In this document: positions 17,463 to 63,622 of the stretch, in pieces
How positions within the stretch are numbered: position 1 is the stretch's first letter
Layout: every line of letters starts with the position of its first letter
Source of the DNA: a phage
Length of the DNA stretch: 64,000 nucleotides
Direction: 5' to 3' (one strand)
Sequence record: PZ154897.1
Made by a program: the position numbers and the translations under genes
Notes under the pieces: generated by a model
What the model was told of the DNA's origin: nothing
The model's database searches: none
The model's input: only the letters and a program-made list of their open reading frames with translations

Positions 17463-17468
17463 TGATAA

Positions 17469-19331: not shown

Positions 19332-19332
19332 A

Positions 19333-19986: not shown

Positions 19987-20321
19987 AGTAGAAAATCTAA
20001 TGTATTAGTTTTTTCACAACGAACAACAGAAGGACGTAAAAGATTTTCGTCGATAGCTTCTGACTGAATTTTTTCAATTATACCCGAAGGAATAAATTTA
20101 GCAAATTGAGTTTCAGGAATAGAATTTTCTTCTAAGAATGCTGTTGTAGCTTCAAGATAACTCATTCCAAACTCTTCTACCATTTTTTCAATGATAAATC
20201 CATTTTCTTGGCGGTCAAGAAGCTTTGCTATTTCATCCTTTTCTTTCTTAATTGAAAGTTCTTTTTCTGAAAGACCGGTCTCATCGACCGGACGAATATC
20301 ATTTAGAGAAAACTGTGTCAT
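19983..20321 (-). CDS. 33: late transcription co-activator gp33 (112 aa from ATG 20321)
   Basis: MTQFSLNDIRPVDETGLSEKELSIKKEK... matches T4 gp33. Confidence 0.9.
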   Translation of the reverse strand: MTQFSLNDIRPVDETGLSEKELSIKKEKDEIAKLLDRQENGFIIEKMVEEFGMSYLEATTAFLEENSIPETQFAKFIPSGIIEKIQSEAIDENLLRPSVVRCEKTNTLDFLL

Positions 20322-20568
20322 AAAGTTCAACTACCTCTTCAGTTTCAGCTTCAAACACATCACGGTTATCTTTATGATACAAAGCTAATAGACGATTAAA
20401 CATCTTGCCATCAACGCCAAGTTCATCTTTGGCACGAATTCGAATATCTTTAATCAATTCATTATAACCAGAAATTTTCAGTTTATGATCAGATGCTTCT
20501 TTAATAAATTTAGCCAAGTCTTCGCCATGGATAGCTTCATCAAATTCAACCATTTCTTTTTTAGCCAT
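20299..20568 (-). CDS. dsbA: dsDNA-binding protein DsbA (89 aa)
   Basis: 89 aa, position between rnh and 33. Confidence 0.8.
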   Translation of the reverse strand: MAKKEMVEFDEAIHGEDLAKFIKEASDHKLKISGYNELIKDIRIRAKDELGVDGKMFNRLLALYHKDNRDVFEAETEEVVELYDTVFSK

Positions 20569-20576
20569 TATTCACC

Positions 20577-21494: not shown

Positions 21495-21519
21495 ATGAAC
21501 CTCGTTCAATTAGTGAGAT

Positions 21520-21555
21520 TTCTATTATATACCATCCGAATCTTAAAGTAAACAA
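21520..21555 (-). promoter_or_regulatory. T4-type early promoter for rnh
   Basis: revcomp of 21548-21553 is GTTTAC; -10 TATAAT-like. Confidence 0.55.
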
Positions 21556-21556
21556 G

Positions 21557-21564
21557 TATAAATA
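21557..21564 (+). promoter_or_regulatory. late promoter TATAAATA for gene 34
   Basis: exact TATAAATA 35 nt upstream of gene 34 ATG. Confidence 0.8.
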
Positions 21565-21598
21565 CTTATTATTGAAAACACAATAGGAGCCCGGGAGA

Positions 21599-24500
21599 AT
21601 GGCCGAGATTAAAAGAAAGTTCAGAGCAGAAGACGGTCTGGACGCAGGTGGCGATAAAATAATCAACGTAGCTTTAGCTGATCGTACCGTAGGAACTGAC
21701 GGTGTTAACGTTGATTACCTAATTCAAGAAAACACAGTTCAACAATACGATCCAACTCGTGGATATTTAAAAGATTTTGTAATCATTTATGATAACCGCT
21801 TTTGGGCTGCTATAAATGATATTCCAAAACCGGCAGGAACTTTTAATAGTGGACGCTGGAGAGCATTGCGTACTGATGCTAACTGGATTACAGTTTCATC
21901 GGGTTCATATCAATTAAAATCTGGTGAAGCTATTTCGGTTAACACTGCAGCCGGTAATGATATTACATTTACTTTACCATCTACCCCAATTGATGGTGAT
22001 ACTATCGTTCTCCAAGACATTGGAGGAAAACCTGGAGTTAACCAAGTTTTAATTGTAGCTCCAGTGCAAAGTATTGTAAACTTCAGAGGTCAGCAAGTAC
22101 GTTCAGTACTAATGACTCATCCAAAATCACAGTTGGTTTTAATTTTTAGTAATCGTCTGTGGCAAATGTATGTTGCTGATTATAGTAGAGAAGCTGTAGT
22201 TGTAACACCAGCGAATACTTATCAAGCGCAATCTAACGATTTTATCGTACGTAGATTTACTTCTGCTGCACCGATTAATATTAAACTTCCGAGATTTGCC
22301 AATCACGGCGATATTATTAATTTCGTCGATTTGGATAAATTAAACCCTCTTTATCATACAATTGTTACTACATACGATGAAACTACTTCAATACAAGAAG
22401 ATGGAACTCATTCTATTGAAGGACGTACATCTATTGATGGTTTCTTGATGTATGACGATAATGAAAAATTGTGGAGATTGTTTGACGGGGACAGTAAAGC
22501 ACGTTTACGTATTATAACAACTAATTCAAATATTCGTCCAAATGAAGAAGTTATGGTATTTGGTGCGAATAATGGAACAACTCAAACAATTGAGCTTCAG
22601 CTTCCAACTAATATTTCTGTTGGTGATACTGTTAAAATTTCCATGAATTACATGCGAAAAGGCCAAACAGTTAAAATCAAAGCTGCCGGTGAAGATAAAA
22701 TTGCTTCTTCAGTTCAATTGCTGCAATTCCCAAAACGTTCAGAATATCCGCCTGAAGCTGAATGGGTAACTGTTCAAGAATTAGTTTTTAACGGTGAAAC
22801 TAATTATGTTCCAGTTTTACAACTTGCTTATATAGAAGATTCTGACGGAAAATACTGGGTTGTACAACAAAACGTTCCAACTGTAGAAAGAGTTGATTCT
22901 TTAAATGATTCTACTAGAGCAAGATTAGGCGTGATTGCTTTAGCTACACAAGCGCAAGCTAATGTCGATTTAGAAAATTCTCCACAAAAAGAATTAGCAA
23001 TTACTCCAGAAACATTAGCTAACCGTACTGCTACAGAAACTCGTAGAGGTATCGCAAGAATAGCAACTACTGCTCAAGTGAATCAGAACACCACATTCTC
23101 TTTTGCTGATGATATTATCATCACTCCTAAAAAGCTGAATGAAAGAACTGCTACAGAAACTCGTAGAGGTGTTGCTGAAATTGCTACGCAACAGGAAACT
23201 AATGCAGGTACTGATGATACTACAATCATCACTCCTAAAAAGCTTCAAGCTCGACAAGGTTCTGAATCATTATCTGGTATTGTAACATTTGTATCTACTG
23301 CAGGAGCTACTCCAGCTTCTAGTCGTGAATTAAATGGTACAAACGTTTATAATAAAAACACTAATAATTTAGTTGTTTCGCCTAAAGCTCTGGATCAGTA
23401 TAAAGCTACTCCAACACAACAAGGTGCAGTAATTTTAGCAGTTGAAAGTGAAGTAATTGCTGGACAAAGCCAAGAAGGATGGGCAAATGCGGTTGTAACG
23501 CCAGAAACGTTACATAAAAAGACATCAACTGATGGAAGAATTGGTTTAATTGAAATTGCTACGCAAAGTGAAGTTAATACAGGAACTGATTATACTCGTG
23601 CAGTCACTCCTAAAACTTTAAATGACCGTATAGCAACTGAAAGTTTAAGTGGTATAGCTGAAATTGCTACACAAGTTGAATTCGACGCAGGCGTCGACGA
23701 TACTCGTATCTCTACACCATTAAAAATTAAAACTAGATTTAATAGTACTGATCGTACTTCTGTTGTTGCTCTATCTGGATTAGTTGAATCAGGAACTCTC
23801 TGGGACCATTATACCCTTAATATTCTTGAAGCAAATGAGACACAACGTGGTACACTTCGTGTAGCTACACAAGTTGAAGCTTCTGCAGGAACATTGGATA
23901 ATGTTTTGATAACTCCTAAAAAGCTTTTAGGTACTAAATCTACTGAAGCACAGGAAGGTGTTATTAAAGTTGCAACTCAGTCTGAAACTGTGACTGGAAC
24001 GTCAGCAAATACTGCTGTATCTCCAAAAAATTTAAAATGGATTGCGCAGAGTGAACCTACTTGGGCAGCTACTACTGCGATAAGAGGCTTTGTTAAAACT
24101 TCATCTGGTTCAATTACATTTGTTGGTAATGATACAGCTGGTTCTACGCAGGACTTAGAGTTATATGAGAAAAATAGCTATGCAGTATCACCATATGAAT
24201 TAAACCGTGTATTAGCAAATTATTTGCCATTAAAAGCAAAAGCCGCTGACACAAATTTATTGGATGGTCTAGATTCATCCCAGTTCATTCGTAGGGATAT
24301 TGCACAGACGGTTAATGGTTCACTAACCTTAACCCAACAAACGAATCTGAGTGCCCCTCTTGTATCATCTAGTACTGCTACGTTTGGCGGATCAGTTTCG
24401 GCAAACAGCACATTAACTATTTCTAATACTGGAACGGCAACTCGTCTGATATTTGAGAAAGGACCTCAAACTGGAACTAACCCAGCGCAGACGATGACTA

Positions 24501-25468
24501 TCAGAGTTTGGGGAAATCAGTTTGGTGGCGGTTCAGATACAACACGTTCTACTGTATTTGAAGTTGGTGATGAAACGTCTAATCACTTTTATTCTCAACG
24601 TAATAAAGCTGGGAATATAACGTTTAGTATCAATGGTACTGTGATGCCGATAAATGTCAATGCTTCGGGTTCTTTGAACGCGAACGGTGTTGCAACATTT
24701 GGTAGTTCAGTTACTGCTAATGGTGAATTCATCAGCAAGTCTGCAAATGCTTTCAGAGCAATAAACGGTGATTACGGATTCTTTATTCGCAACGATGCTG
24801 CTAACACCTATTTTATGCTTACTGCATCGGGTGATCAGACTGGCGGATTTAATGGATTACGTCCTTTAGCTATTAACAATGCATCCGGTCAAGTAACGAT
24901 TGGTGAAAGCTTAATCATTGCCAAAGGTGCTACTATAAATTCAGGTGGTTTAACTGTTAACTCGAGAATTCGTTCTCAGGGCACTAAAACATCTGACTTA
25001 TATACCCGTGCGCCAACATCTGATACTGTAGGATTCTGGTCAATTGACATTAATGATTCAGCTACTTATAACCAGTTCCCAGGTTATTTTAAAATGGTTG
25101 AAAAAACTAATGAAGTGACTGGGCTTCCGTACTTAGAACGTGGCGAAGAAGTTAAATCTCCTGGTACATTAACTCAGTTTGGTAACACACTTGATTCGCT
25201 TTACCAAGATTGGATTACTTATCCAACGACTCCAGAAGCACGTACCACTCGCTGGACACGTACATGGCAGAAAACCAAAAATTCTTGGTCGAGTTTTGTT
25301 CAGGTATTTGATGGAGGTAACCCTCCTCAACCATCTGATATCGGTGCTTTACCATCTGATAATGCTACAATGGGGAATCTTACTATTCGTGATTTCTTAC
25401 GAATTGGTAATGTTCGTATTATTCCTGACCCAGTGAATAAAACGGTTAAATTTGAATGGGTTGAATAA
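21599..25468 (+). CDS. 34: long tail fiber proximal subunit gp34 (1289 aa)
   Basis: same length as T4 gp34; internal ATETRRG...TPKKL repeats. Confidence 0.97.
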   Translation: MAEIKRKFRAEDGLDAGGDKIINVALADRTVGTDGVNVDYLIQENTVQQYDPTRGYLKDFVIIYDNRFWAAINDIPKPAGTFNSGRWRALRTDANWITVSSGSYQLKSGEAISVNTAAGNDITFTLPSTPIDGDTIVLQDIGGKPGVNQVLIVAPVQSIVNFRGQQVRSVLMTHPKSQLVLIFSNRLWQMYVADYSREAVVVTPANTYQAQSNDFIVRRFTSAAPINIKLPRFANHGDIINFVDLDKLNPLYHTIVTTYDETTSIQEDGTHSIEGRTSIDGFLMYDDNEKLWRLFDGDSKARLRIITTNSNIRPNEEVMVFGANNGTTQTIELQLPTNISVGDTVKISMNYMRKGQTVKIKAAGEDKIASSVQLLQFPKRSEYPPEAEWVTVQELVFNGETNYVPVLQLAYIEDSDGKYWVVQQNVPTVERVDSLNDSTRARLGVIALATQAQANVDLENSPQKELAITPETLANRTATETRRGIARIATTAQVNQNTTFSFADDIIITPKKLNERTATETRRGVAEIATQQETNAGTDDTTIITPKKLQARQGSESLSGIVTFVSTAGATPASSRELNGTNVYNKNTNNLVVSPKALDQYKATPTQQGAVILAVESEVIAGQSQEGWANAVVTPETLHKKTSTDGRIGLIEIATQSEVNTGTDYTRAVTPKTLNDRIATESLSGIAEIATQVEFDAGVDDTRISTPLKIKTRFNSTDRTSVVALSGLVESGTLWDHYTLNILEANETQRGTLRVATQVEASAGTLDNVLITPKKLLGTKSTEAQEGVIKVATQSETVTGTSANTAVSPKNLKWIAQSEPTWAATTAIRGFVKTSSGSITFVGNDTAGSTQDLELYEKNSYAVSPYELNRVLANYLPLKAKAADTNLLDGLDSSQFIRRDIAQTVNGSLTLTQQTNLSAPLVSSSTATFGGSVSANSTLTISNTGTATRLIFEKGPQTGTNPAQTMTIRVWGNQFGGGSDTTRSTVFEVGDETSNHFYSQRNKAGNITFSINGTVMPINVNASGSLNANGVATFGSSVTANGEFISKSANAFRAINGDYGFFIRNDAANTYFMLTASGDQTGGFNGLRPLAINNASGQVTIGESLIIAKGATINSGGLTVNSRIRSQGTKTSDLYTRAPTSDTVGFWSIDINDSATYNQFPGYFKMVEKTNEVTGLPYLERGEEVKSPGTLTQFGNTLDSLYQDWITYPTTPEARTTRWTRTWQKTKNSWSSFVQVFDGGNPPQPSDIGALPSDNATMGNLTIRDFLRIGNVRIIPDPVNKTVKFEWVE

Positions 25469-25476
25469 GAGGTATT

Positions 25477-26592
25477 ATGGAAAAATTTATGGCAGAGTTT
25501 GGACAAGGATATGTCCAAACGCCATTTTTATCGGAAAGTAATTCAGTAAGATATAAAATAAGTATAGCGGGTTCTTGCCCGCTTTCTACTGCAGGACCAT
25601 ACGTTAAATTTCAAGATAATCCTGTTGGAAGTCAAACATTTAGCGCAGGTCTTCATTTAAGAGTTTTTGACCCTTCCACCGGAGCATTAGTTGATAGTAA
25701 GTCATATGCTTTTTCTACTTCAAATGATACTACATCAGCTGCTTTTGTTAGTTTCATGAATTCTTTGACGAATAACAGACTTGTTGCTATATTAACTAGC
25801 GGAAAGGTTAATTTTCCTCCTGAAGTAGTATCTTGGCTAAGAACCGCAGGAACGTCTGCTTTTCCATCTGATTCTATATTGTCAAGATTTGACGTATCAT
25901 ATGCTGCTTTTTACACTTCTTCTAAAAGAGCTATTGCATTAGAGCATGTTAAATTAAGTAATAGAAAAAGCACAGACGACTATCAAACTATTTTAGATGT
26001 TGTATTTGACAGTTTAGAAGATGTTGGAGCTACCGGCTTTCCAAGAAGAACATATGAAAGCACCGAGCAATTTATGTCAGCAGTCGGTGGAACTAATAAT
26101 GAAATTGCGCGATTGCCAACTTCAGCTGCTATAAGTAAACTCTCTGATTATAATTTAATTCCTGGTGATGTTCTTTATCTTAAAGCTCAGTTATATGCTG
26201 ATGCCGATTTACTTGCTCTTGGAACTACAAATATATCTATCCGTTTTTATAATGCATCGAATGGATATATTTCTTCAACACAAGCTGAGTTTACCGGGCA
26301 AGCTGGGTCTTGGGAATTAAAAGAAGATTATGTAGTTGTTCCAGAAAACGCTGTGGGATTTACGATATACGCACAAAGAACAGCACAAGCTGGTCAAGGT
26401 GGCATGAGAAATTTAAGCTTTTCTGAAGTGTCAAGAAATGGAGGTATTTCGAAACCCGCTGAATTTGGCGTCAATGGCATTCGTGTTAATTATATCTGTG
26501 AATCTGCTTCACCTCCGGATATAATGGTACTTCCTACACAAGCATCGTCTAAAACTGGTAAAGTGTTTGGGCAAGAATTTAGAGAAGTATAA
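25477..26592 (+). CDS. 35: long tail fiber hinge connector gp35 (371 aa)
   Basis: begins MEKFMAEFGQGYVQTPFLSESNSVRYK. Confidence 0.95.
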   Translation: MEKFMAEFGQGYVQTPFLSESNSVRYKISIAGSCPLSTAGPYVKFQDNPVGSQTFSAGLHLRVFDPSTGALVDSKSYAFSTSNDTTSAAFVSFMNSLTNNRLVAILTSGKVNFPPEVVSWLRTAGTSAFPSDSILSRFDVSYAAFYTSSKRAIALEHVKLSNRKSTDDYQTILDVVFDSLEDVGATGFPRRTYESTEQFMSAVGGTNNEIARLPTSAAISKLSDYNLIPGDVLYLKAQLYADADLLALGTTNISIRFYNASNGYISSTQAEFTGQAGSWELKEDYVVVPENAVGFTIYAQRTAQAGQGGMRNLSFSEVSRNGGISKPAEFGVNGIRVNYICESASPPDIMVLPTQASSKTGKVFGQEFREV

Positions 26593-26598
26593 ATTGAG

Positions 26599-27325: not shown

Positions 27326-30300
27326 ATGGCTACTTTAAAACAAATACAATTTAAAAGAAGCAAAACCGCAGGTGCACGTCCTGCTGCTTCAGTATTAGCC
27401 GAAGGTGAATTGGCTATAAACTTAAAAGATAGAACAATTTTTACTAAAGACGATTCAGGAAATATCATTGATTTAAGCATTTCTGCTGGCGGTAATATCA
27501 GTGGAAATATCACTCAAACTGGTGATTATACACAGACTGGAAAATTTAATTTAATTGGTCCGCAAATTGTAGCAAGCGGTGGATATATTGAGTTTAATTA
27601 TCGTACTACTGGAAGTGGGTCTTGGGCCGGTCAACACACCGCAAAAGCTCCAATTTTTGTAGATTTAAGCTCAGCTACTTCCACATCTGAATATAATCCT
27701 ATAATTAAACAACGCTTTAAAGATGGAACTTTTTCATTAGGTACTTTAGTTTCTGAAGGTTCGTTGAAGATTCATTATATCAATGAATCTGGCGATTCGA
27801 AATATTGGACGTTTCGACGTGATGGCGGATTTACTGTTGACGGCGGAGGTTTAGCAGTATCAGGAGGTAGTATAACTACATCTGGAAATATTGCAGCTCT
27901 CGGAAATATTACTTCACCTCAGATTAATACTAAAAATATTATTTTAGATACAAAAGCATTCGGACAATACGATTCGCAGTCATTAGTTCAATATGTTTAT
28001 CCTGGAACAGGCGAAGAAAATGGTATAAACTATCTTCGTAAAGTTCGAGCTAAATCAGGTGGAACTATTTACCATGAAATTGCTTCTGCGCAGACTGGTA
28101 AGAATGATGAAATTTCTTGGTGGACTGGAAATTCGCTTACTACTAAATTAATGGGTCTTCGTAATGATGGCGCAATGGTATTACGTCGTTCACTTGCTAT
28201 TGGCACAATTACCACTGATGAAAATACTAACAACTATGGTTCTCCTACTCCAATGGGAGAAAGATATATTGCTTTGGGTGATGCTGCAACTGGTTTAAAA
28301 TATATTAAGCAAGGCGTTTATGATTTAGTAGGTAATTGGAATTCTGTTGCTTCTATTACTCCTGATAGTTTCCGTAGTACTCGTAAAGCATTATTTGGAC
28401 GTTCAGAAGACCAAGGCGGAACCTGGACAATGCCTGGAACGAACGCTGCTCTCTTGTCTGTTCAAACCCAGGCAGATGTGAATAACGCAGGCGATGGTCA
28501 AACCCACATTGGATATAATTCTGGCGGTAAATTTTCCCATTATTTCCGCGGTAAAGGCCAAACCAACATTAATACGCAGGAAGGTATGGAAATTAACCCT
28601 GGTATTTTGAAATTGGTAACTGGCTCTAATAACGTACAGTTTTATGCTAACGGAACGGTATCTTCAATACAAAGAATTAAATTTGATAACGGAGTAATTC
28701 TTACTGGTGCTAGACCTGACGGTATTCAACTTGACGCTCCTACATCAGCAGATGGCACTAAAACTATACTGTGGGCTGGTGGTACTCGCGCAGGTCAGAA
28801 TAAAAGTTATGTATCTATTAAAGCATGGGGTAATTCATTTAACGCATCTGGCGATCGTGCTCGTGAAACAGTTTTTGAAGTGGCTGACGGGCAGGGATAT
28901 TATTTTTATGCACAACGCACTACTCCTGCATCAGGTCAAACAGTAGGTCCGGTTAACTTTAAATTTAACGGAACTGTCGAAACAGGCCATATCATAGGCC
29001 TTGGAAATATAAGTGCCTCCGGTACAGGTTCTTTTGGTGGCAATGTTACCATGTCTAATGGTTTGTTTGTCCAAGGTGGTTCTTCTATTACTGGGCAAGT
29101 TAAAATCGGCGGAACATCAGATGCATTAAGAATTTGGAATGCTGAATATGGCGCAATTTTCCGTCGTTCTGAAGATAAGTTTTATATTATTCCAACCCCA
29201 CAGAATGCGGGTGAATCAGGTGGCATTTCTAATTTACGTCCGTTCTATATTACATTAAGTAATGGTAAAGTTTCCATGGATCATGATGTAGATATCGGTG
29301 GCGGTAGATTTAAAGTAGAAGTGGCTGGAACAACATCAGGGCAACGTATTACAGTTAATATGGCATCAGATGCTATTAGACTAAATGCTCCAACGCAAGA
29401 GTCTTCTAACTTCATCCAAGGACGTAAAGCAGATGTTCCGAAATGGTATTTAGGTATTGGCGATGGCGGCAACGTCGTTCGTATGCACAGTTACACCTAC
29501 TCCCACGGTATTGCATTAAACTCTGATACGGTTGATATAGCTAAACCTCTTAGAATAGGTTCAGCTCAATTAGGTACTGATGGTAATATTACTGGCGGTT
29601 CTGGTAATTTTGCTAACTTGAATACCACAATAAATAACCTTAAGACGGATATTGTCTCAAGTTATCCAATTGGTGCTCCGATTCCTTGGCCTACTGATAC
29701 ACCTCCTGAAGGTTATGCCATCATGGAAGGTCAAACATTTGATGCCAACTTGTATCCTAAGTTAGCTGCGGTGTATCCTTCCGGCGCTCTGCCTGATATG
29801 CGTGGTCAAACTATCAAGGGTAAACCATCCGGGCGTGCTGTATTAAGTACAGAAGCAGACGGTGTTAAGTCACATAGCCATAGTGCAAGTGCATCAAACA
29901 CAGATTTGGGTACTAAGACCACTTCTAGTTTTGATTACGGCAGCAAAACGACTTCAAGCTTTGATTATGGTACTAAGACCAGTAATACCACTGGCAACCA
30001 TAACCATACAGTGAGTGGTAATACTGGTTCCGCTGGTGCTCACCAACATGCGCGTTCAGGCCCTCAGATGCAAGGCGGCATACCCACTAGCATATTCTAT
30101 GATGGATACAATAGTGCGGGTCCAAACGGCAACGCTAAAATCACTGGAACCGTGAGCGGTGCTACTGCATCGTCGAATATGGCCAAAACTTCTTCAGACG
30201 GTGCCCACACCCATAGTTGGTCTGGTACTACTAGCGCTACTGGTAACCATGCTCATACTGTGGGTATTGGTGCTCATACACACACTGTAGGCATTGGTGC

Positions 30301-30418
30301 TCATACTCACACGGTAGCTATTGGTTCCCATGGACATACAATAACTGTAAATGCCACAGGAAATACAGAAAACACAGTTAAAAACGTTGCTTTTAACTAT
30401 ATCGTTCGTTTAGCATAA
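27326..30418 (+). CDS. 37: long tail fiber distal subunit gp37 (1030 aa), receptor-binding
   Basis: C-terminal His-rich HxH repeats ([16 protein letters not shown]...) typical of T4 gp37. Confidence 0.95.
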
Positions 30419-30423
30419 GGAGA

Positions 30424-30443
30424 AGGGACTTCTGTCCCTTTTT
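30424..30443 (+). terminator. terminator-like hairpin after gene 37 (AGGGAC-UUCU-GUCCCU + U-tract)
   Basis: stem-loop followed by TTTTT. Confidence 0.5.
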
Positions 30444-30448
30444 ATAAT

Positions 30449-31000
30449 ATGAAACTCTATCACTATTATTTTGACACTAAAGAATTTTACAAAGAAGAAA
30501 ATTATAAACCATTAAAAGGCGTAGGATTTCCGGCTCATTCGACACCAAAAAAACCTTTAGACCCTAAAGAAGGCTATGCTGTTATATTTGACGAACGCGA
30601 ACAAGAATGGGTTTATGTTGAAGACCATCGTGGAAAAACAGTATGGACATATGATAAGCAAAAAATTGTTATTGACACTCCAGGTGCTCTTCAAAATGTT
30701 ACTACAGAAGAACCTGGTGAATTTGACATTTGGACCGGCGACGGGTGGAAGGAAGATGAAGCATATAAACGCGTAGTTCAACGTGATAAGAAAATTCATG
30801 AACTCTATAAATTATTCAGTGTTTTAAGTTCTCTTATTGACGCAGAGGTTGCTAATAGAGAAGAAAAACGAAAATTTAAAGAGCTCAAAAAATTCTTTGC
30901 CCTTTTAGAAAAACATGAACATCTTGGCGGCGAATTCCCTAAATTCCCTGACCTTGAAAACAAATCTATTTTCAAAGCGATTATAAATATCTTTAAGTAA
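30449..31000 (+). CDS. 38: gp38 tail-fiber assembly chaperone, T4 type (183 aa)
   Basis: 183 aa like T4 gp38; directly downstream of 37. Confidence 0.85.
   Translation: MKLYHYYFDTKEFYKEENYKPLKGVGFPAHSTPKKPLDPKEGYAVIFDEREQEWVYVEDHRGKTVWTYDKQKIVIDTPGALQNVTTEEPGEFDIWTGDGWKEDEAYKRVVQRDKKIHELYKLFSVLSSLIDAEVANREEKRKFKELKKFFALLEKHEHLGGEFPKFPDLENKSIFKAIINIFK
30982..30989 (+). promoter_or_regulatory. late promoter TATAAATA for holin gene t
   Basis: exact TATAAATA 21 nt upstream of t ATG, inside 3' end of gene 38. Confidence 0.75.
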
Positions 31001-31009
31001 GGAGGTATT

Positions 31010-31669
31010 ATGGCAACACCAAAAGTATCATTTTCGCCTAGTGATATTCTATTTGGGTTGCTAGATCGTATTTTCAAAGATAACGCTACTGGAAAGGTTT
31101 TAATGTCACGAGTAGCGGTAATTATTCTTTTGTTCCTAATGGCACTAATATGGTACAAAGGAAGTATTTTGCTGGATTATTATGTAAGAGCTAAGTATGA
31201 TACTTATACTGAAATAATCCAAAAAGAACGAGCTTTACGTTTTGAATCTGCGGCTCTAGAACAACTGCAAATAGTTCATATCTCATCTGGTGCAGATTTT
31301 AGTGCTGTGTATTCTTTCAGACCTAAAAACTTAAATTATTTCGTCGACCTTATAGCTTATGAAGGCAAACTACCTAGCACAATTTCTGAAAAGTCCCTTG
31401 GTGGATTCCCAGTGGATAAAACGGCTAATGAATATATGGTTCATTTAAGTGGCCGTCATTTCTCATCTAAATCAGAATTTGCATTTTTGCCTACAAAATC
31501 TAAGACTGCCGAACTTTCTTATATGTATAGTTGTCCATACTTTAATTTGGATAACATCTACGCTGGAACTGTGACGATGTATTGGTATAAGGGGAGTAAT
31601 ATACTTGAGGAAGATCGCTTAGCGGCTATATGCAACCAAGCGATCCGAATACTAGGAAGGGCTAAATAA
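31010..31669 (+). CDS. t: holin T (219 aa)
   Basis: MATPKVSFSPSDILFGLLDRIFKDNATGKV..., single TM then large periplasmic domain; matches T4 holin. Confidence 0.95.
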   Translation: MATPKVSFSPSDILFGLLDRIFKDNATGKVLMSRVAVIILLFLMALIWYKGSILLDYYVRAKYDTYTEIIQKERALRFESAALEQLQIVHISSGADFSAVYSFRPKNLNYFVDLIAYEGKLPSTISEKSLGGFPVDKTANEYMVHLSGRHFSSKSEFAFLPTKSKTAELSYMYSCPYFNLDNIYAGTVTMYWYKGSNILEEDRLAAICNQAIRILGRAK

Positions 31670-31942
31670 TTAGTTGTTAGAATACATCGCTAAATGACGA
31701 TAAATATTTTCAAAACCTTCATTGAATTCACTAATCAGTGTTTTCTTTTCTTCGGCAGTTAAATTTGTAATTAGTTTTCTGAACGAATTCTGATTTAGCT
31801 GCCGACCATCTTTTTTAATTCCAATCTCATTCAAGAATCCGATGAAACTTGCTCGGTCTTCAACAATATCTTCCCTAGAGAATTTAATCAAAATAGAAGC
31901 AATAGTAATAATTTCACGTACGATTTCAATGTCTTTATTCAT
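31670..31942 (-). CDS. asiA: anti-sigma70 factor AsiA (90 aa)
   Basis: MNKDIEIVREIITIASILIKFSREDIVE...; 90 aa. Confidence 0.95.
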   Translation of the reverse strand: MNKDIEIVREIITIASILIKFSREDIVEDRASFIGFLNEIGIKKDGRQLNQNSFRKLITNLTAEEKKTLISEFNEGFENIYRHLAMYSNN

Positions 31943-34519: not shown

Positions 34520-34669
34520 TTACTGCATGACTGTGATAACTGTCATAATAACACGTTGAATTCCGAATGCAAGAAGACCTCCTGCTACGGCTTGAACAAC
34601 ACCTAAACCCGCCAGTAAAATACTACCGGATACTAATGCAGCGCTTGTAATACCTATGAATGGACTCAT
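34520..34669 (-). CDS. small hydrophobic membrane protein (49 aa)
   Basis: ATG overlaps gene 52 stop (ATGA); hydrophobic throughout. Confidence 0.4.
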   Translation of the reverse strand: MSPFIGITSAALVSGSILLAGLGVVQAVAGGLLAFGIQRVIMTVITVMQ

Positions 34670-35994
34670 TTGATTTCCTCTAAATCTTTGGTGTATTCTG
34701 TAACTACATCAGTAGTTTTCCAATATTCGTTTTCTTCTTTTTTAGCTTTAGCTTCTTCAGCAAGTTTCTTTGCTTCGTCAGAAGTCATATGAAAAATGTT
34801 CATTCCAACTAGTTTATCAACATAAGAAGAATACATATCAATTTTAGAAAGTTCTTCGGTCAGTTCTTTGCGAGTTTTACCTTGTACAACAATTTCACCT
34901 GAAATTACTTTCTTAATGAAATGTGCCTTAGCAAAAGCTAAACGAAATGCTGATTCAGTTTCTTTGATTTTGTTATCAATTCGTTTTTGGACATAAGTTT
35001 TACGAACTTCAACGAAGTCTTTAATTAAATCAACTACGTTATCGTAAACTTGCAGCTTTCCTTTCTCATTAATAACGGTAATATTCTGGGAACGACGCTC
35101 AATCAACCCGAAGTCTTTCATAATTTTTGCATGGCGTTCTTCTTCGTTATCACTCAAAGAGTATTCTTTACGGATTTTAACTTTGAAGCCAAAGCCATGC
35201 TCACCACAAGCATCATCCCATGTAATGAAGCCTTTATCTTCAAGTGGGTCTAAGATTTTACTCACATAAGTTTCACGATCATACTTATACGGAATCTCAG
35301 TGATATTCATTTGAGTTCGTGAAGTAAACTTGTACGTTCCACGAATTTCATATTGACCGTCAATTTCAACGACTTCACCACGAAATTCTGGGAATTCTAC
35401 CTTCGGTTTAGTTACTTTCTTTCCTTGAAGAGCTTGTAGTACAGCTTTCTTGACAGAAGAAACACTATGAGGAAGAATGTAAGTTGCATAACCAGTTGCA
35501 ATACCGGAAACACCATTAAGAAGAACAGTAGGAATAATAGGCAAATAGAAAGCAGGCGGAATGTGTTCTTTATCTTGATGTACCGGAGCATATTCAGTAT
35601 CTTTATATACGTTATAGAAATTTTTACTTACGCGAGCAAAAATATAACGACTTGCCGCTGCTTTTTGAACGGTACGAGAACCAAAGTTTCCTTGACCGTC
35701 TAACAGAGGAAAGTTATTATTCCAAGTGTTAGCCATCAAAGCCCCCGCATCTTGTGCAGAGTTTTCACCATGATGATATCCAAGGTCTGCTACACCACCT
35801 GCAATAGAAGCAAGTTTGTGAAACTTATCTTTATTTCCTCGCGCCAAATCAAGAGCTCGAGCAATAACAAATCGTTGGACTGGCTTAAATCCATCAATCA
35901 TATTTGGAATAGCACGATTTTCAACCGTGTACATAGCATAAGCCAGTGCTTCATTATCAATGATACTTTTTAAATCGCGATTATTCAGTTGCAT
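34666..35994 (-). CDS. 52: DNA topoisomerase II medium subunit gp52 (442 aa)
   Basis: GyrA-like breakage-reunion domain; same length as T4 gp52. Confidence 0.95.
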   Translation of the reverse strand: MQLNNRDLKSIIDNEALAYAMYTVENRAIPNMIDGFKPVQRFVIARALDLARGNKDKFHKLASIAGGVADLGYHHGENSAQDAGALMANTWNNNFPLLDGQGNFGSRTVQKAAASRYIFARVSKNFYNVYKDTEYAPVHQDKEHIPPAFYLPIIPTVLLNGVSGIATGYATYILPHSVSSVKKAVLQALQGKKVTKPKVEFPEFRGEVVEIDGQYEIRGTYKFTSRTQMNITEIPYKYDRETYVSKILDPLEDKGFITWDDACGEHGFGFKVKIRKEYSLSDNEEERHAKIMKDFGLIERRSQNITVINEKGKLQVYDNVVDLIKDFVEVRKTYVQKRIDNKIKETESAFRLAFAKAHFIKKVISGEIVVQGKTRKELTEELSKIDMYSSYVDKLVGMNIFHMTSDEAKKLAEEAKAKKEENEYWKTTDVVTEYTKDLEEIK

Positions 35995-37782: not shown

Positions 37783-38046
37783 TCATAGTTCAATCTCAGC
37801 GATTTTCATTTCATTACTATTAATAGCCGCTTTAAGACTATCTGAAAGAATTACATTCCAGTGGTCATTCATATGACCATTAACTAAGCGTGTAATTTCT
37901 TCGGGAGTTGAAAAATAAGGCGTATCAGACTCCCAATGCGATAGTCCCAAGCGAGTATAAATCATACCTTCATCACCGCTAGAATATTCAACTGACACAA
38001 ACTCATCAGTTATTTTATGTTTAGCGTAATAAAATTTAAATTTCAT
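37783..38046 (-). CDS. hypothetical protein (87 aa)
   Basis: GGAGG SD; downstream of early promoter. Confidence 0.45.
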   Translation of the reverse strand: MKFKFYYAKHKITDEFVSVEYSSGDEGMIYTRLGLSHWESDTPYFSTPEEITRLVNGHMNDHWNVILSDSLKAAINSNEMKIAEIEL

Positions 38047-39936: not shown

Positions 39937-42114
39937 TTAGGCCGCAAGGGCCTTCATAGTTTTAGCGATTTGAGAAACTTCATCATCACTTAAAGAGTTG
40001 CGATATCCGATGAAGTCGGAAACAATACGGAATTTCTTGGTAAACTCAGCAACCATTTTATCACTGTTTTTTGAAGCATTATTTGATAATACATCAAAAA
40101 GATTAGTTACTGTCCAGATGTCATGACCGATGGTATCTCTTCCACCATTAAAATATACACCCTGTAATGAACTAACCATATTAGCAAGTCGTGTATATTC
40201 TTCAGAAACTTCATCTACACTGAAGTACTTCATCATAAAATCTAACTCAGGATACTTGATAATTTTATCAATATATCGTTTAGCTGAACTTGAATAACCT
40301 ACATACTTATCATAATCTACATCATCAAAAGCATCTACATATAAATCACGCAGAGTTTCAAAAATACATTGGCACTGACCGAGTTCTTTTACCTTTTTCT
40401 GTAAAAGCGGACGAATAACATAAAATTCATTAATGCCAATAAGATTAGCCATACGAATCAAAATATTCATAGATGGATGACAGAGAGATGTAGTACCATC
40501 CATAGAGAAAATATCAGAACGATGCATATACGCTACATAACCAGTAATTTCATCTGCTTCTGATGTGAGCGTAAACAGTTCCTCTTTTTCCCAGCGCCCA
40601 TCTTTAATTTCAAACTTAAATACTGTAGCAGCTTTAGGACGAGGAGCTTTACTTTTAACTACCTTTGGAATATAGCTTTTAACTAAAGCTTCAATTTCTG
40701 ACAAATAATGAATGTTAACTTCATCACTTTCAAACATTGCCATAATATCAGGAAGTAAATCAATCTGTGATTCTACTTCCGGATTAATAAACAGAAGACG
40801 CTCGTTGTGATGAATATTTAAAGTGTTATTAAATTCACTATCATCTAATGCACGTGCTAATCCACGGACAATATTAACACGATTTTTAATATTATCAATA
40901 ACGATATTAATTTTTGTTGTATTAATACCAAACAGACGATAACTTGATGCAACGGCTGAAGTTTCATGGCTTTGCTTAATGCGTTTCAGTCGAGGGTCAA
41001 GATTTACTTCATACACAACCCCTGCATTGCATAACTTACTGTCAGGTTCAAACATGCTTTGCATCTTCTTATATGACAGATTTTTAGTCGTGAATTTGAC
41101 CGAATTACTAATCATATAATCTCGAGCAGAATATCCCATCTTCATCAATTCACGGTATGTATGACGAGGAGATGTAGATTCTTTAAATCGTTTTACATCT
41201 TCATTAAATGCCTTCTCACTGAGCTCTTTAACACGCTCAATAATATTTTTACGAGTACGATCATCTAGTGAAAGAGCCTCACGCGATGGAGCAATATCAA
41301 GTGAACCCATTGGAAACTTAATGTAATTCACTTCATTACGAATGCTTAACCAGTTACGGTCTCTAATAACACCGTCTATAGGATAAACAATACCACCATA
41401 GATAGCATATAATCCACCACGATCTGGCCAGTATCTTTCTGGATTTACGCCGTAATAATCATCAAAATCAGGAAAATAATCAATTTCGCGGTCAAGACCA
41501 TTAATGATAGCCAAATCTTTGAATGGTCGCATGATATAAGAAACTTCATAAGCAAAGTTTCTAAAGTCTTTTTCTTCAACTGGAACTACGATTTCAATAC
41601 CAGTTTTATCGTCTGGACCCATTTCTTTTACGAATGTAGGTTTAATCTGCGGACCGTCACCATCCATGTAAGCTACATAACCACGAATTTCGCCTTTATG
41701 ATATGAAGTGATACTAAACGTATCAGTATAACTAAACGGAGATTTAGAACCTAAACCAAATCCACCAATGAAATCATTAGATTCAGCCTTAGATGAACTG
41801 AAGTATGAATTATACAACCCAGGAGAATTATCATCACCCTGAATATCAAAATCGCTCATACCCGGACCAAAATCTCGACAAACAAATCGCGGATCTAATC
41901 GTCCTGGAACTTGAATGATAAATTTTTCAGGATTTCCATTAAGAGCATGGGCATCAATCATGTTGGTAATCAATTCACGAACCACTGCGCGAATCTTGTT
42001 TGTATACAAATCAGATGACAGAATTTTAAATACTTTAGGAGACGCTGTGATGCTAAATGCTTTTGATTTAGAACCATTACCAAGAATTGTTTCTTTTTCA
42101 GTGGTGATAATCAT
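39937..42114 (-). CDS. rIIA: rIIA protein (725 aa)
   Basis: 725 aa, GHKL-like ATPase N-terminus. Confidence 0.9.
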
Positions 42115-42124
42115 AATTTCCTCA

Positions 42125-42328
42125 TTAATTCATATTGCGTTTAATAACTTCAGCAACTTCTAGTAGTTCATCTTTAGTTGCAGTGTCGGATTGAATTTTA
42201 TCTCTAATATCCTTAAAGCGGTTTTTAAACTCTTCGGCTTCTCCCATATCGAAAAAGCGTTGAATGATTCTATATTCTCGATGAACTGCTTTATCAAATA
42301 GTTCTAAATTTACTTTATATGATTTCAT
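42125..42328 (-). CDS. hypothetical protein (67 aa; rIIA.1 position)
   Basis: ORF in array. Confidence 0.45.
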
Positions 42329-42349
42329 TTCAATATCCTCATTTGCCCA

Positions 42350-42386
42350 ATTAATTATACCACATCCTTGTGGTAAAGTAAACTAT
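42350..42386 (-). promoter_or_regulatory. T4-type early promoter
   Basis: revcomp of 42379-42384 is GTTTAC; -10 GGTATAAT. Confidence 0.6.
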
Positions 42387-44203
42387 TGGCTCATCCATTC
42401 TTTACGAAGGTCAGCATTATCTCCCATGAGCATTTCAAAAAGCTCTTTCCAGTTCTCAGGAAGTTTAACAACATCATAAACTGGGTTTTGAATCATCTCA
42501 CGATATTCAGATTTTTCCAAAGAGCCAAGTCCCTTAATATAACGGATGCTATGTTTAGGTAGAGCATCTTTGGCACTCTCATATTCAGCGACTGTATAAA
42601 ACCATTCTTGTTTTTTACCGACCTGAGCGATGATTACAGGAGTTTTGACAAAGCGAATTCTTCCTTGTTCAAACAGTTCTGGCCAATTACTAAAAAATCC
42701 GAGCAGAGAAGGATAAATGCTTCCTAGACCATCATGGTCAGCATCGGTCATAATTGCAATATTATGATAATTCAAGTTTTCGGCTTTTTCACCAAGAACT
42801 AATCCAGTGATTGCGCAAATATCAAACAGTTCTTTGTTTTTAAGCATATCAGCATATGACATACCCCAACTGTTGAGAACTTTACCACGTAATGGATAAC
42901 CACCATGAAGTTCTTTATCACGAACATCAATAAGATATCCAATAGCAGAATCACCCTCAGTCAAGAAAAGAGTAGTATCAGCATCTTTACCACAAAGATT
43001 CGCTTTAATATGTTTATGAACCTTAGCTTTAGAAGCCTTTTTAGCTGCTTTAGTTTCTGCTGCTTTTTCTGCCGCCAATTTACGAGCAAGGGCAGCTTCA
43101 ATGATTGGCATTAAAATTGCTTCATTATTTAAAATAGCACGTGAAATCTTTTTAGCATCAAGCTGAATATGACTACGGATTTCACCAAATGGAGAAGTAA
43201 GTCGTTCTTTAGTTTGAGAATCAAATCGCATGTTTTTCATATCACGGACAAACATAACGATAGTCAAACATTCTTTGACACGTGCTTTAGTTACATCAAT
43301 TTTGAATTTACGTTTGATTTGTGGAATAAGGTCTTCACAAATATCATCCATAACGCAGTCAATGTGATGGCCACCATTCTTAGTATGAATGTTATTGACG
43401 TATGTTAATTGACGAAAACCATCCGGTGAACGACCAACAGCAATAGAACAATTTTCTTGTTCTTGAACGATAGCATGTTCATCATACTGTCGTGCATATT
43501 TCTTAAAATTACCCTGAACCTTTTTACCATTAAAGGTAAATTGAATATCAGGATAAACTACTGCAAGTGTCTGGAGACGATCCAGTGTAATGTCAAGATA
43601 AACTTGAGATAGCTCATTAGTTTCAAATGACATAAAATCAGGAATGAAAGTAACGCGAGTTCCTTTCCATTTTCCAGGAATAGTTTCCCACGATTTATTT
43701 TCCATGCCATTTGAACAACGAACTACAATATTATTTTGACCATCGCCGGTTTCACCGACAAACATCACAGAAAAAATATTAGTTAAACTAGAACCAACAC
43801 CATTCATACCACCAGTGACGCGTTCTTTATCATCACCGAAGTTACCACCTGCTTTTGGAATAGTCCATGCAGCAACTGGACCAGGAATTTCTTCACCGGT
43901 AGGTGTTTTAACCATCGCCTGTGGAATACCGCGACCGTTATCTTCAACTGTTACTTGATTGTTTTTAATAGTAACATTAATTTTATTTGCGAATTTAAAC
44001 TTAGTACGAATACCTTCATCTACTGAGTTATCGATAATTTCATCAATAAGCTTAACAAGACCAGGTACATACTGAACACTTTCCCATTTACCAAACAGAA
44101 AGCGCTCATGCATTTCATTAGCTGAAGAGCCAATGTACATGCCGCTACGCTTTTTGATATGTTCAATATCGCTCAGAATTTTAATTTCATTCTTAATCAT
44201 CAC
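42383..44203 (-). CDS. 39: DNA topoisomerase II large subunit gp39, unsplit (606 aa)
   Basis: GHKL ATPase plus Toprim in one continuous ORF. Confidence 0.95.
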   Translation of the reverse strand: MMIKNEIKILSDIEHIKKRSGMYIGSSANEMHERFLFGKWESVQYVPGLVKLIDEIIDNSVDEGIRTKFKFANKINVTIKNNQVTVEDNGRGIPQAMVKTPTGEEIPGPVAAWTIPKAGGNFGDDKERVTGGMNGVGSSLTNIFSVMFVGETGDGQNNIVVRCSNGMENKSWETIPGKWKGTRVTFIPDFMSFETNELSQVYLDITLDRLQTLAVVYPDIQFTFNGKKVQGNFKKYARQYDEHAIVQEQENCSIAVGRSPDGFRQLTYVNNIHTKNGGHHIDCVMDDICEDLIPQIKRKFKIDVTKARVKECLTIVMFVRDMKNMRFDSQTKERLTSPFGEIRSHIQLDAKKISRAILNNEAILMPIIEAALARKLAAEKAAETKAAKKASKAKVHKHIKANLCGKDADTTLFLTEGDSAIGYLIDVRDKELHGGYPLRGKVLNSWGMSYADMLKNKELFDICAITGLVLGEKAENLNYHNIAIMTDADHDGLGSIYPSLLGFFSNWPELFEQGRIRFVKTPVIIAQVGKKQEWFYTVAEYESAKDALPKHSIRYIKGLGSLEKSEYREMIQNPVYDVVKLPENWKELFEMLMGDNADLRKEWMSQ

Positions 44204-44225
44204 TTATCCTCGTTTGGTTTCGGGA

Positions 44226-44254
44226 ATATTATACTCCAGTAATCATAAAGCTAA
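44226..44254 (-). promoter_or_regulatory. candidate MotA-box middle promoter for gene 39
   Basis: minus strand tAGCTTTAtgattactggagTATAAT. Confidence 0.4.
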
Positions 44255-44270
44255 AGGCCCGAAGGCCTTT
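44253..44270 (-). other. intercistronic C(UUCG)G hairpin
   Basis: AAAGGCC-UUCG-GGCCUUU. Confidence 0.5.
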
Positions 44271-44530
44271 TATTTAAAACGAATAGTCGAATCCTTGAAG
44301 AATAGTCCAGAACATACTGTTCCTTCTACTTTCTGCCCAGTAGGTCCAATAGCACGAAATCCAGTATGTTGGAAATCATTTTCAGAGCAACCGAACCAAT
44401 TATATCCAGTGATTTCAATATTAGTAAAACCACTTGAAGACAAAACTTTAGTTGCATTATCAGCATCAGTACATCCTACTAAAGACACTGCTAATACTAA
44501 TGCTGCAATAGAACGATTAATATATTTCAT
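44270..44530 (-). CDS. putative lipoprotein (86 aa)
   Basis: signal peptide with lipobox LVGCT. Confidence 0.5.
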   Translation of the reverse strand: MKYINRSIAALVLAVSLVGCTDADNATKVLSSSGFTNIEITGYNWFGCSENDFQHTGFRAIGPTGQKVEGTVCSGLFFKDSTIRFK

Positions 44531-44532
44531 AA

Positions 44533-44709
44533 TTACCCTTTAAGCAAGTCGTAAAATCCACCATTCACATGCTTAGGAGCGGAAACTAACCGAATAGCAA
44601 TCCGATGACAATCAGGACATACATCAGTATCCCTTTCAGAAATTTTCTTGATTTTTTCGTATTCTTTTGCACAGTCTTTGGATTGACATTTATAATCATA
44701 AAGCGGCAT
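44533..44709 (-). CDS. zinc-ribbon protein (58 aa, CxxC...CxxC)
   Basis: YDYKCQSKDC...CPDCH; AAGGAA SD. Confidence 0.5.
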   Translation of the reverse strand: MPLYDYKCQSKDCAKEYEKIKKISERDTDVCPDCHRIAIRLVSAPKHVNGGFYDLLKG

Positions 44710-44711
44710 AA

Positions 44712-45137
44712 TTATTCCTTAAAGTGAGCTTTCAACATCTGATACAAGGACCATGCTTGTTCATTATTTTCAATAGTAACTTTCATTACCGGGAATTCTG
44801 TGAAATCTTCTATTTGTTCTTGCTCTTTCTCTTCCTGCTCTTGCTCTTCAGCTGCCTGGTATGGATTTTCAACTTCATCAAAGAATTCAGCTTCGCTCGC
44901 TGAAAGCCAGATAAAATCTTCATCCAAAATATCTTTACCAGAAGATAACGCCAATTTTCCACTAGATGTCACAAGTTTAGTAGGACGACCAAGATAGTCA
45001 ATATCTGTAACTCTAAAAGGTTCCATACCTAAACGTCGTGCATAAATTCCGTTTTCAGTATGATATTTAATAAATTTTTCTTGAGCTTGTTTATTTTTAA
45101 ATTGATACCATTTATTAACTTCAAATTTAATAGCCAT
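44712..45137 (-). CDS. hypothetical protein (141 aa), goF-like by size and position
   Basis: same length as T4 goF; acidic [11 protein letters not shown] tract. Confidence 0.35.
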
Positions 45138-45352
45138 TAATAAATTTCCTTCCAGTAAGTTGTACCGTCTTCAGTGATTTCACGAAATACGCCATAAATT
45201 GGTTGTTTATCACCGACTTTCTCATACACATAAACAGAAGTCAAGTGAGTAAACTTGCTAGTATGTTCCTTTTGAACTACTACCAAATTTGGATCAAATA
45301 ATACATCTTCAAATTCATCATTAGTGCAATTCTGAACAATTTTACGTTTCAT
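45137..45352 (-). CDS. hypothetical protein (71 aa), cef-like by size and position
   Basis: 71 aa. Confidence 0.35.
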
Positions 45353-45523
45353 TACAATTTCCTCATTAATTGAACATTGGAGCGATGCGTTTCAGAAGAG
45401 TATCAGCACCTTTAACGAATTATCCATTTTATTCTCCAAGTTGTTTTCTGTATCAGTAGTTGATATTGATATAGTACCATAATCAACTACTGATGTATAT
45501 AGTTTTATGAAAAATTTTAAACT

Positions 45524-60809: not shown

Positions 60810-61965
60810 TTAACTGATCTAGGTCAGTTTCTAAATCAGCTGCTGATTTGTTTTTACTTTCTGGAGATTTAAATTTTTCAACCTTTGAGTTAATCAATTC
60901 ATCAACTTCAGCTTCAACAATTTCATTACTATCAATAGCACCTAACTGATAAGCACGTTTAATAGCATCTCGGAATGGCTGATGCTTAAATAAAGGACCC
61001 CAGAATGTAGTGCAGTTGGTATCTTTTGCACGCCAAGATTTTTCTTCGCGAATCATCTCGCCTGTTTCTTCGTCAAGAAATTCACGAGCATACCAGCCAT
61101 TTTTAGGTTTTACTACAAATCCTAATTCAAGAGCCATATCTAACAATCCAGAATAAGGATCGATACCACCGTCAAATTTAACATCAATAAAGAATTTACT
61201 TTTTTCTTTAACAGTACGAGATTTTTCTACATTTAGAACAAATTGATACCCCTGAAGATCAGAACCATCTTTAATCTGGCGCTTACCGATAATGAATACA
61301 GTATCAGCCGAATACATTACGCCTGTACCACCTGTCATCACGGTTTTACTAAACATTTCAATTGTTTCAATTGTATGGTTAACCGCAACACATGGAATAT
61401 TTTTAATGCTAAAATAAGGAGTAACAATACGGAATAATGACTTCAGTGATTTAGCACGAGTCATATCTGCCACAGATTTTTCATTCAAGGCATCTTCCGT
61501 TTCTTTCTTAGAAGCCATATTACCGATTGAGTCGATGAATACAATAACTTTTTCACCGCGCTCAATAGCTTCAAGCTGATTCACCATATCAATTTTCAGC
61601 TGTTCAACTGACTGGATTGGCGTATGAATTACTCGTTCCGGGTCAACCCCCATGGATCGCAAATAAGCTGGAGTAATACCAAATTCACTATCATAGAATA
61701 GACAAACCGCGTCAGGATATTTGTTCAAATATGCCGCAACCATAGTCAAAGACATATTTGATTTAAAGTGTTTAGAAGGCCCTGCGAAAATAGTTAAACC
61801 AGACTGCATACCGCCATCAATCGCACCAGAAATAGCAATATTGAGCATTGGAATTTTTGTACGGATTACATCCTTTTCATTAAAGAATTTAGATGTAGTC
61901 AGTTCAGCAGTCATTTTAGAAGTGGAAGCTTTAATCAAACGGGATTTTAAATCTGCAATAGACAT
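60784..61965 (-). CDS. uvsX: UvsX recombinase, RecA-like (393 aa)
   Basis: MSIADLKSRLIKASTSK...; Walker A GPSKHFKS. Confidence 0.97.
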   Translation of the reverse strand: MSIADLKSRLIKASTSKMTAELTTSKFFNEKDVIRTKIPMLNIAISGAIDGGMQSGLTIFAGPSKHFKSNMSLTMVAAYLNKYPDAVCLFYDSEFGITPAYLRSMGVDPERVIHTPIQSVEQLKIDMVNQLEAIERGEKVIVFIDSIGNMASKKETEDALNEKSVADMTRAKSLKSLFRIVTPYFSIKNIPCVAVNHTIETIEMFSKTVMTGGTGVMYSADTVFIIGKRQIKDGSDLQGYQFVLNVEKSRTVKEKSKFFIDVKFDGGIDPYSGLLDMALELGFVVKPKNGWYAREFLDEETGEMIREEKSWRAKDTNCTTFWGPLFKHQPFRDAIKRAYQLGAIDSNEIVEAEVDELINSKVEKFKSPESKNKSAADLETDLDQLSDMEEFNE

Positions 61966-62042
61966 TCATTTTTTCCATAGGCATCATTATATTTTCCTCA
62001 CTGGTTAAAGATAGAGTAATTATAACACAATAAATTTAGGCA

Positions 62043-62891
62043 TTAATCAACCGCTATTGGATGAATAGCATTAAACTTATGAAACGCTTCTGATTTTTCT
62101 TTGCGCGAAACACACATGCGAAGAACCTTTAATGGCTCGTCTTCTTCACCCAACGATTTTCGTTTTTCAATATTAGAAGTTTTCCAACGAGCTTGCTCTG
62201 GAAACTCTTTATTGATTTGCTCAAGAGCTCTATTATGTTTTGAATTACTACGAATTGAGCTGCATCCACCGGGAGCCTGCGCTTTTCCAGATACAACCAA
62301 ATATTTGAACAAGGCCAAATGCGGATAACCTTGATTAATTAAATTGAGAAATGCATACATATCTTCGCATAAATCAATTTTTCCATACCCAATTTGTTCT
62401 GTTGTAAGTTTTCCAAGGTCATACCATGTATTCGTGAATCCATATGAATTTTCACGGTAATTACCCCAAGATGAAGTAATTTTAAAAATAGGTAGACGAG
62501 CATGGCCATGATAATACCCGCAATCCATGGCATCTTCAACGTATTGAATCAATTCATAGAACTGCTCACGGGTTAACTGATTAATTTTATCTACGCAGCG
62601 ACGATCATCTTTCTTTCGCATTGAACTCATACGAATAGTAGTATCATCATCAATCATCCAAATTCGTTGACCTGCATACATATCAGTAATCGCTTTACGA
62701 GTACCAGCAATTCCATTGACATCATCAGGAATAGTTATAATTTTAGCTCTAGACCCATAGGCATCATAATAAGCTTTTTCTTCATGTTCACGCACTACAA
62801 TATGGGGTTCATAATCAGTCGGAAACATATCAAGGGCAGAAACTGCCCCTACACGTTGATAACTTGGAATTACAAATTGAATCATTTCCAC
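62043..62891 (-). CDS. putative glycosyltransferase (282 aa), GT-A-like, at the beta-gt locus
   Basis: hydrophobic stretch then DDD (IWMIDDDTTI) typical of a DxD motif; does not resemble T4 beta-gt as I recall it. Confidence 0.5.
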   Translation of the reverse strand: MEMIQFVIPSYQRVGAVSALDMFPTDYEPHIVVREHEEKAYYDAYGSRAKIITIPDDVNGIAGTRKAITDMYAGQRIWMIDDDTTIRMSSMRKKDDRRCVDKINQLTREQFYELIQYVEDAMDCGYYHGHARLPIFKITSSWGNYRENSYGFTNTWYDLGKLTTEQIGYGKIDLCEDMYAFLNLINQGYPHLALFKYLVVSGKAQAPGGCSSIRSNSKHNRALEQINKEFPEQARWKTSNIEKRKSLGEEDEPLKVLRMCVSRKEKSEAFHKFNAIHPIAVD

Positions 62892-63622
62892 TCACCGTTA
62901 TAATCTTTTTTCATAATATGAGTTTCGCCAGTATTCCACCAATGATCAACCAAGTAAAAATGACGAGAATATACATGAAGACTTCCAACATTCCATATAA
63001 TAGAACCTGCTTTATACTGACGAGTTGAATCGCCTGCATTCAAATCAGATACTAATTTATCTAATACGTATTTTTGCCATGCATAATCATTACGGAATCC
63101 GAAGACCACGTCATTTGAGCGCATGCTTACTACTGCATTGACTTTCTTATCACGAATCAGGTACTGTACTGTATTAGTACACATGAAATCTGACATGCCA
63201 TCTTTATTGTAGTCAAACTGCATAGATGGACGAGTATAAATCATGATACCACGTCGAGAATCAGGATTTTGACCAAGTTCAGCTAAACACATGTCATATT
63301 GAGCATAGTTATCTTCTGACCAGATAGCCCAACCATAATTCGAGTTAATTTCACCTTTAGAAGATGCTACCTGTTGCCAAATCTTTGGTGTTTCACCTGG
63401 AATATCTTTAACAAACAGACTTTGAGACTTGTACCATTCAAGTTCACGCTGAATGTATTCATCATTAAGAGCGCCAAAAATAAACGGTTCATCTGCTACA
63501 AATGATGCGCCAATAATTTCAATAGTTTTAACACCAGTTTTATCAACTACGAAATCTTTTTCCTTTAATGCAGTTCCCAAATGAAGACGGATTTCTTCAA
63601 CTGTCATAGAGTCACTAATCAT
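62882..63622 (-). CDS. 42: dCMP hydroxymethylase gp42 (246 aa)
   Basis: thymidylate-synthase-like fold, 246 aa as in T4. Confidence 0.95.
   Translation of the reverse strand: MISDSMTVEEIRLHLGTALKEKDFVVDKTGVKTIEIIGASFVADEPFIFGALNDEYIQRELEWYKSQSLFVKDIPGETPKIWQQVASSKGEINSNYGWAIWSEDNYAQYDMCLAELGQNPDSRRGIMIYTRPSMQFDYNKDGMSDFMCTNTVQYLIRDKKVNAVVSMRSNDVVFGFRNDYAWQKYVLDKLVSDLNAGDSTRQYKAGSIIWNVGSLHVYSRHFYLVDHWWNTGETHIMKKDYNGEWK

Follow-up and report, generated by a model that had tools for sequence, protein, structure and literature searches.

The locus described here lies in a 64,000-nt stretch of phage DNA (the window) and contains gene 39, which encodes the large subunit of topoisomerase II. The ORF listing gives a single open reading frame on the minus strand at 42383..44203, counted as 606 aa from a GTG codon at 44203. 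The frame reads through this interval with no internal stop, as expected from the earlier note, which had described one unsplit ORF here. Its length of 606 aa needed a small correction, however. The second codon is an ATG (44200..44198) in frame with the GTG at 44203, a GAGGA Shine–Dalgarno-like motif lies 7 nt upstream of this ATG, and the same methionine begins the gene 39 annotations of T2 and T6 (1818 nt) as well as the PDB sequence. Because of the GAGGA spacing and these shared starts, the best placement of gene 39 is likely 42383..44200, with the ATG at 44200 as start codon and a product of 605 aa. It should accordingly be annotated as a single topoisomerase II large subunit of 605 aa that begins at this ATG; no recoding is expected. 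A promoter and terminator scan of 41900..45400 returned sites no more numerous than in shuffled sequence.

Pfam searches of gp39 identified the domains expected of such a subunit, a GHKL ATPase, a transducer and a Toprim region. The matches were to HATPase_c (residues 48–150, E = 1.9e-9), to DNA_gyraseB, the transducer or second domain of GyrB (residues 251–385, E = 1.5e-13), and to TOPRIM_C (residues 520–605, E = 4.2e-7). The core Toprim model, PF01751, had no match in gp39 at E ≤ 0.001. The ATPase glycine motifs are present at residues 87 (DxGxG) and 131 (GxxGxG), and residues 1–380 match the crystal structure of the T6 ATPase domain (9IMJ). Among solved structures, 8YLU chain C matches best; it is also 605 aa long and differs at one residue. 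This chain is T6 gp39, which was purified with gp52, relaxes DNA and has reported structures; the Toprim metal pocket of the T6 enzyme consists of E415, D486 and D488 (PMC11461880). All three residues are present in the window's gp39, in the contexts LTEGDS and MTDADHDG. The Toprim assignment is based on TOPRIM_C, on the catalytic residues and on the identity to the T6 structure. The proposal that ATPase and Toprim are encoded together in one ORF is borne out by these Pfam domains, by the E...DxD residues and by colinearity with T4 (see below).

T6 (MH550421) and T2 (MH751506) each carry a 605-aa, 1818-nt gene 39 at 2447..4264, and both reference annotations remark that the T4 gene is split. 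The unsplit form that the earlier note ascribed to T2/T6-type phages is thus what their records contain. T6 gp39 (YP_010067157.1; PDB 8YLU, 8YO1, 8YOD; Nat Commun 2024, PMC11461880) shares 604 of 605 residues with the window's protein, and has the same domain order, Toprim E415/D486/D488 and the same neighbours, rIIA.1 and 39.1. The two proteins differ at residue 526, which is Q here and H in T6. T2 gp39, likewise 605 aa, is identical at 603 residues, the differences being F70L and T173D. At the DNA level, gene 39 is 96.0 per cent identical to T6 and 96.1 per cent identical to T2, in each case with no gaps over 1818 nt.

The flanking genes are also arranged as in other T-even phages. Immediately downstream of gene 39, as in T4, T2 and T6, is rIIA.1 (42125..42328, minus strand; Pfam T4_RIIA1, E = 1.4e-33), followed by rIIA (39937..42114). 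Immediately upstream is gene 39.1 (44270..44530, minus strand), which at 86 aa has the T2/T6 length and is 97 per cent identical in DNA to T6 4334..4594. By eye, the N-terminus of its product appears lipoprotein-like. Further upstream is gene 39.2, which encodes a zinc-ribbon protein (44533..44709). At the junction of 39.1 and 39.2 (~44531), the window is without a 372-nt ORF, similar to RB69ORF005c, that is found between these genes in T2, T6 and many relatives. This ORF accounts for the roughly 377 nt of extra length in many relatives; we considered an insertion in gene 39 as its source and rejected it. In the database, the locus matches vB_EcoM_IME537 (MT179807 / NC_054921) most closely, with 99.4 per cent identity over 2601 nt; within this 2601-nt locus the gene order is equal, including 39.1 and 39.2.

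In T4, the same enzyme is encoded with the same flanking genes, but in two pieces. The T4 record agrees with the description in the earlier note, with genes 39 and 60 placed around mobA and a 50-nt bypass in gene 60. The parts common to both phages are 96–98 per cent identical in protein. Alignment by BLASTP (606-aa numbering) was colinear and free of gaps: residues 2–474 match T4 gp39 1–473 at 98 per cent identity, and residues 473–606 match T4 gp60 27–160 at 96 per cent. The split in T4, at residue 473, separates the Toprim Glu from the DxD motif, so the Toprim site is shared by two polypeptides in T4, unlike here.

DNA homology to T4 ends at window position 42783 (T4 3911) and restarts at 42718 (T4 2793). 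Between these breakpoints, 64 nt in the window (42719..42782, minus strand, codons 473–494) stand opposite 1117 nt in T4. These 64 nt are the 'parental' segment of the gene. The 1117 nt of T4 comprise the last 43 codons of gene 39, which form a 43-aa C-terminal extension (CTE) of gp39; the mobA pseudogene and 60.1; and codons 1–46 of gene 60 (a 30-aa N-terminal extension, or NTE, and the diverged homR) with the 50-nt untranslated gap. In T4 this gap sits between Gly46 (GGA) and Leu47 of gene 60, the equivalents of Gly491 and Leu492 here. In a codon comparison with T4 2803..2852, the window has contiguous codons for Asp490-Gly491-Leu492 (GAT GGT CTA; 42725..42733, minus strand): it reads GAT GGT CTA GGA AGC, whereas T4 reads GAT GGA, the 50-nt gap ending in GGA, and then TTA GGT TCT.

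We then searched the whole 64-kb window for the components of the T4 insert. Using tblastn, the T4 CTE, NTE, gp60.1 and MobA fragment gave chance-level matches only, with no match for gp60.1. Searching for the bypass and its flanks with blastn-short likewise gave chance-level matches only. A match to the mobA fragment at 11628..11720 was rejected, as it was merely the HNH motif of an unrelated MobE-like ORF. The gene 39 junction holds no insert, with neither an HNH mobA gene nor a remnant of one.

This organization has a published counterpart. In the Manning & Atkins preprint, the MobA element is a ~1.1-kb cassette whose insertion removes 64 nt from the 'parental' Topo2L gene, and close genome pairs with and without the MobA insert are reported (10.1101/2022.08.31.505936). 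The window agrees with the published parental allele in every respect, including the size of the 64-nt deletion. As summarized in that work, Bonocora et al. (2011, PNAS), with T2 as the experimental recipient, found nicking of gene 39 by MobA and transfer of both the split and the bypass in mixed infection; the review PMC2988022 gives a further account of the primary homing-endonuclease papers. The part of T2 gene 39 nicked by MobA has its counterpart within the segment at 42719..42782, which departs from the T2 target segment by only 3 synonymous positions. Given this near-identity to the T2 target, the allele would be expected to be susceptible, as a recipient, to homing by MobA.

To determine how frequent the unsplit form is, we used a 261-nt junction query (42620..42880) and scored a record as contiguous when one place covered at least 80 per cent of the query. 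Of 512 phage records that matched, 468 (~91 per cent) had a contiguous junction. The T4-specific 1117 nt were present in forty-three records, among them several T4 isolates. The unsplit gene is the majority state in Tequatrovirus, and T4 is the outlier at gene 39. Since the unsplit form is the majority state, it marks no special lineage; the arrangement is common, well documented and already known. Its significance lies mostly in correct annotation, as the textbook reference T4 is an atypical genome at gene 39. The phage also falls among the ~90 per cent of Tequatrovirus genomes potentially receptive to the MobA/bypass cassette.

Taken together, we conclude with a probability of roughly 93 per cent that gp39 is the intact large subunit of a T-even type IIA topoisomerase in its uninvaded 'parental' state. 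Nothing that we found speaks against this assignment. On this reading, a MobA homing-endonuclease cassette of ~1.1 kb replaced the 64 nt in T4 and in a smaller share of its relatives, dividing Toprim into a gp39 part with the Glu and a gp60 part with the DxD and importing the 50-nt bypass gap. The present phage would either never have received the cassette or have lost it wholly through recombination, two histories that would look alike in the sequence, and gene 39 would be translated conventionally. The partner DNA-cleavage subunit is encoded by gene 52 (34666..35994, minus strand), an intact 442-aa ORF identified by its T4 gene 52 length and its syntenic position, inside a block 91.6 per cent identical to T4 161584..167025. 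As solved for T6, gp39 would pair with gp52 to form an A2B2 enzyme, which would serve phage replication by relaxing and decatenating DNA. ATP-dependent relaxation or decatenation activity may be expected of this enzyme from its near-identity (604/605) to the assayed T6 protein.

The alternative that fares best is that the unsplit state is secondary, with an ancestral MobA cassette cleanly lost, for example through recombination with an uninvaded phage in a co-infected cell. T-even genomes are mosaic. Gene 39 is 99.4 per cent identical to IME537, while the surrounding 24 kb reach at most ~95 per cent identity to any record. Aeromonas phages that lost MobA by 'hit and run' have also been described (10.1101/2022.08.31.505936). 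However, the hit-and-run cases described there retain the CTE and NTE peptides, neither of which was found here, and the 64-nt segment belongs to the T2/T6 type, not to the diverged homR borne by the cassette. With the unsplit allele as the majority state, no loss event is needed, and we regard this alternative as very unlikely.

A variant of the parental reading is that the allele is uninvaded but immune, the 3 synonymous differences from T2 in 42719..42782 conferring natural resistance to nicking by MobA. We would give this only a slim outside chance; if true, it could help explain the rarity of the cassette (~8 per cent of records).

It is scarcely conceivable that the ORF is intact in appearance only, and is instead decaying, non-functional or broken by a hidden frameshift. 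The check for a frameshift or stop found neither: gene 39 has no internal stop and aligns without gaps to T2 and T6 gp39 across all 605 residues, with two and one residues differing, respectively. There are 71 codon differences from T6, with synonymous and nonsynonymous changes in a ratio of 70 : 1, and sixty-nine from T2 (67 : 2). Because nearly all of these differences are synonymous, the comparison indicates strong purifying selection on gene 39, as would be expected of a functional gene rather than a chance ORF. Every catalytic residue checked is present.

The idea that the assembly collapsed a real insertion and so produced the contiguous gene can be given almost no credence: assembly oddities do exist in public records of this locus, but the identical contiguous junction occurs in 468 independent records, including the T2 and T6 references, and the junction sequence is in frame and conserved. 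One such oddity is the near-identical record of Shigella phage CT01 (OK018184.1), which we considered as a second type of split and rejected. Its gene 39 is interrupted by 641 nt at 3417..4057. About 570 nt of this insert (query 46–618) match ycaP-ycaO in all 5,426 of 5,426 E. coli genomes, at up to 99.7 per cent identity, and the insert is followed by a duplication of ~400 nt of gene 39 from position 4058. The CT01 record is probably an assembly chimera unrelated to MobA.

We also compared the content of selfish elements with that of T4. The T4 span syntenic with the window is 128924..168903 plus 1..26597. There T4 has seven homing-endonuclease loci (I-TevIII, mobE, I-TevI, segG, mobA, segF and segA), two introns of group I and, in addition, the bypass gap. 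Against T4's seven loci and two introns, the window has two endonuclease genes and one ORF-less intron. The suggestion that this phage belongs to a lineage with fewer selfish elements than T4 therefore holds for the 64-kb span, but the lineage is not clean, as it has a td intron, a MobE-like gene and segG. T4 has 15 homing endonucleases in total (10.1101/2022.08.31.505936), so a lower count elsewhere is the expected pattern. The tally is a descriptive lineage marker and not a discovery.

The individual differences are as follows. The nrdB gene is intronless, as the earlier note had stated; T4 138457..139056, the nrdB intron with I-TevIII, is missing from the window. I-TevI had been reported as missing too, and its ORF is indeed gone (T4 143716..144469), but td still has a 262-nt intron. 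This ORF-less group I intron (14897..15158, minus strand; Rfam RF00028, 76 bits) lies between td exons at about 15159..15719 and 14585..14896, and the 754 nt that carry I-TevI in T4 are missing. The bounds 14897..15158 follow the splice sites that we take to be those of T4. A short form of the td intron occurs in ~38 of 260 intron-bearing phage records, some of them 58 nt longer than the one in the window. Synteny comparison and tblastn found no mobA cassette, segF or segA in the window. Two small ORFs occupy the position of segF. In place of segA and beta-gt there is a replacement region (61953..62900) with a gene for a 282-aa beta-glucosyl-HMC-alpha-glucosyltransferase (phrog_842; ORF 62043..62891, minus strand), presumably pointing to a gentiobiosyl DNA modification of the T2/T6 type. 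The insertions specific to the window contain small ORFs of unknown function only, none of them endonuclease-like.

The first of the two endonuclease genes lies between nrdA and nrdB (11031..11762, minus strand) and encodes a MobE-like HNH protein of 243 aa, with HNH and NUMOD1 domains and a match to the homing endonuclease family phrog_655. Its first 104 residues are 64 per cent identical to T4 MobE. In T4, mobE is 141 aa long and is followed by nrdB.1, and the C-terminal part of the 243-aa ORF has no T4 counterpart. The ORF may be a full-length MobE variant or a Hef-type replacement, a kind of replacement reportedly described by Sandegren and colleagues in NAR in 2005 (Sandegren et al. 2005). 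The second gene encodes SegG, a GIY-YIG homing endonuclease that adjoins gene 32 (18702..19331, minus strand). It is 99.5 per cent identical to T4, which exceeds the identity of the surrounding DNA (~94.5 per cent), and this excess would fit a recent acquisition by homing.

A few other differences from T4 were observed along the window. Five small ORFs, all on the minus strand, have no positional counterpart in T4 (4332..4859, 6495..6806, 15707..15913, 16491..16736 and 37783..38046), and every one of them has a match to a PHROG family of unknown function. The 68-aa ORF at 15707..15913 separates frd from td, two genes with a direct overlap in T4. Most of the other DNA in the window is 92–97 per cent identical to T4. 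The distal tail-fibre region (27475..31942), which takes in genes 37 and 38 and the beginning of t, is 74–78 per cent identical to T4 with gaps, and looks like the usual hypervariable module for host range.
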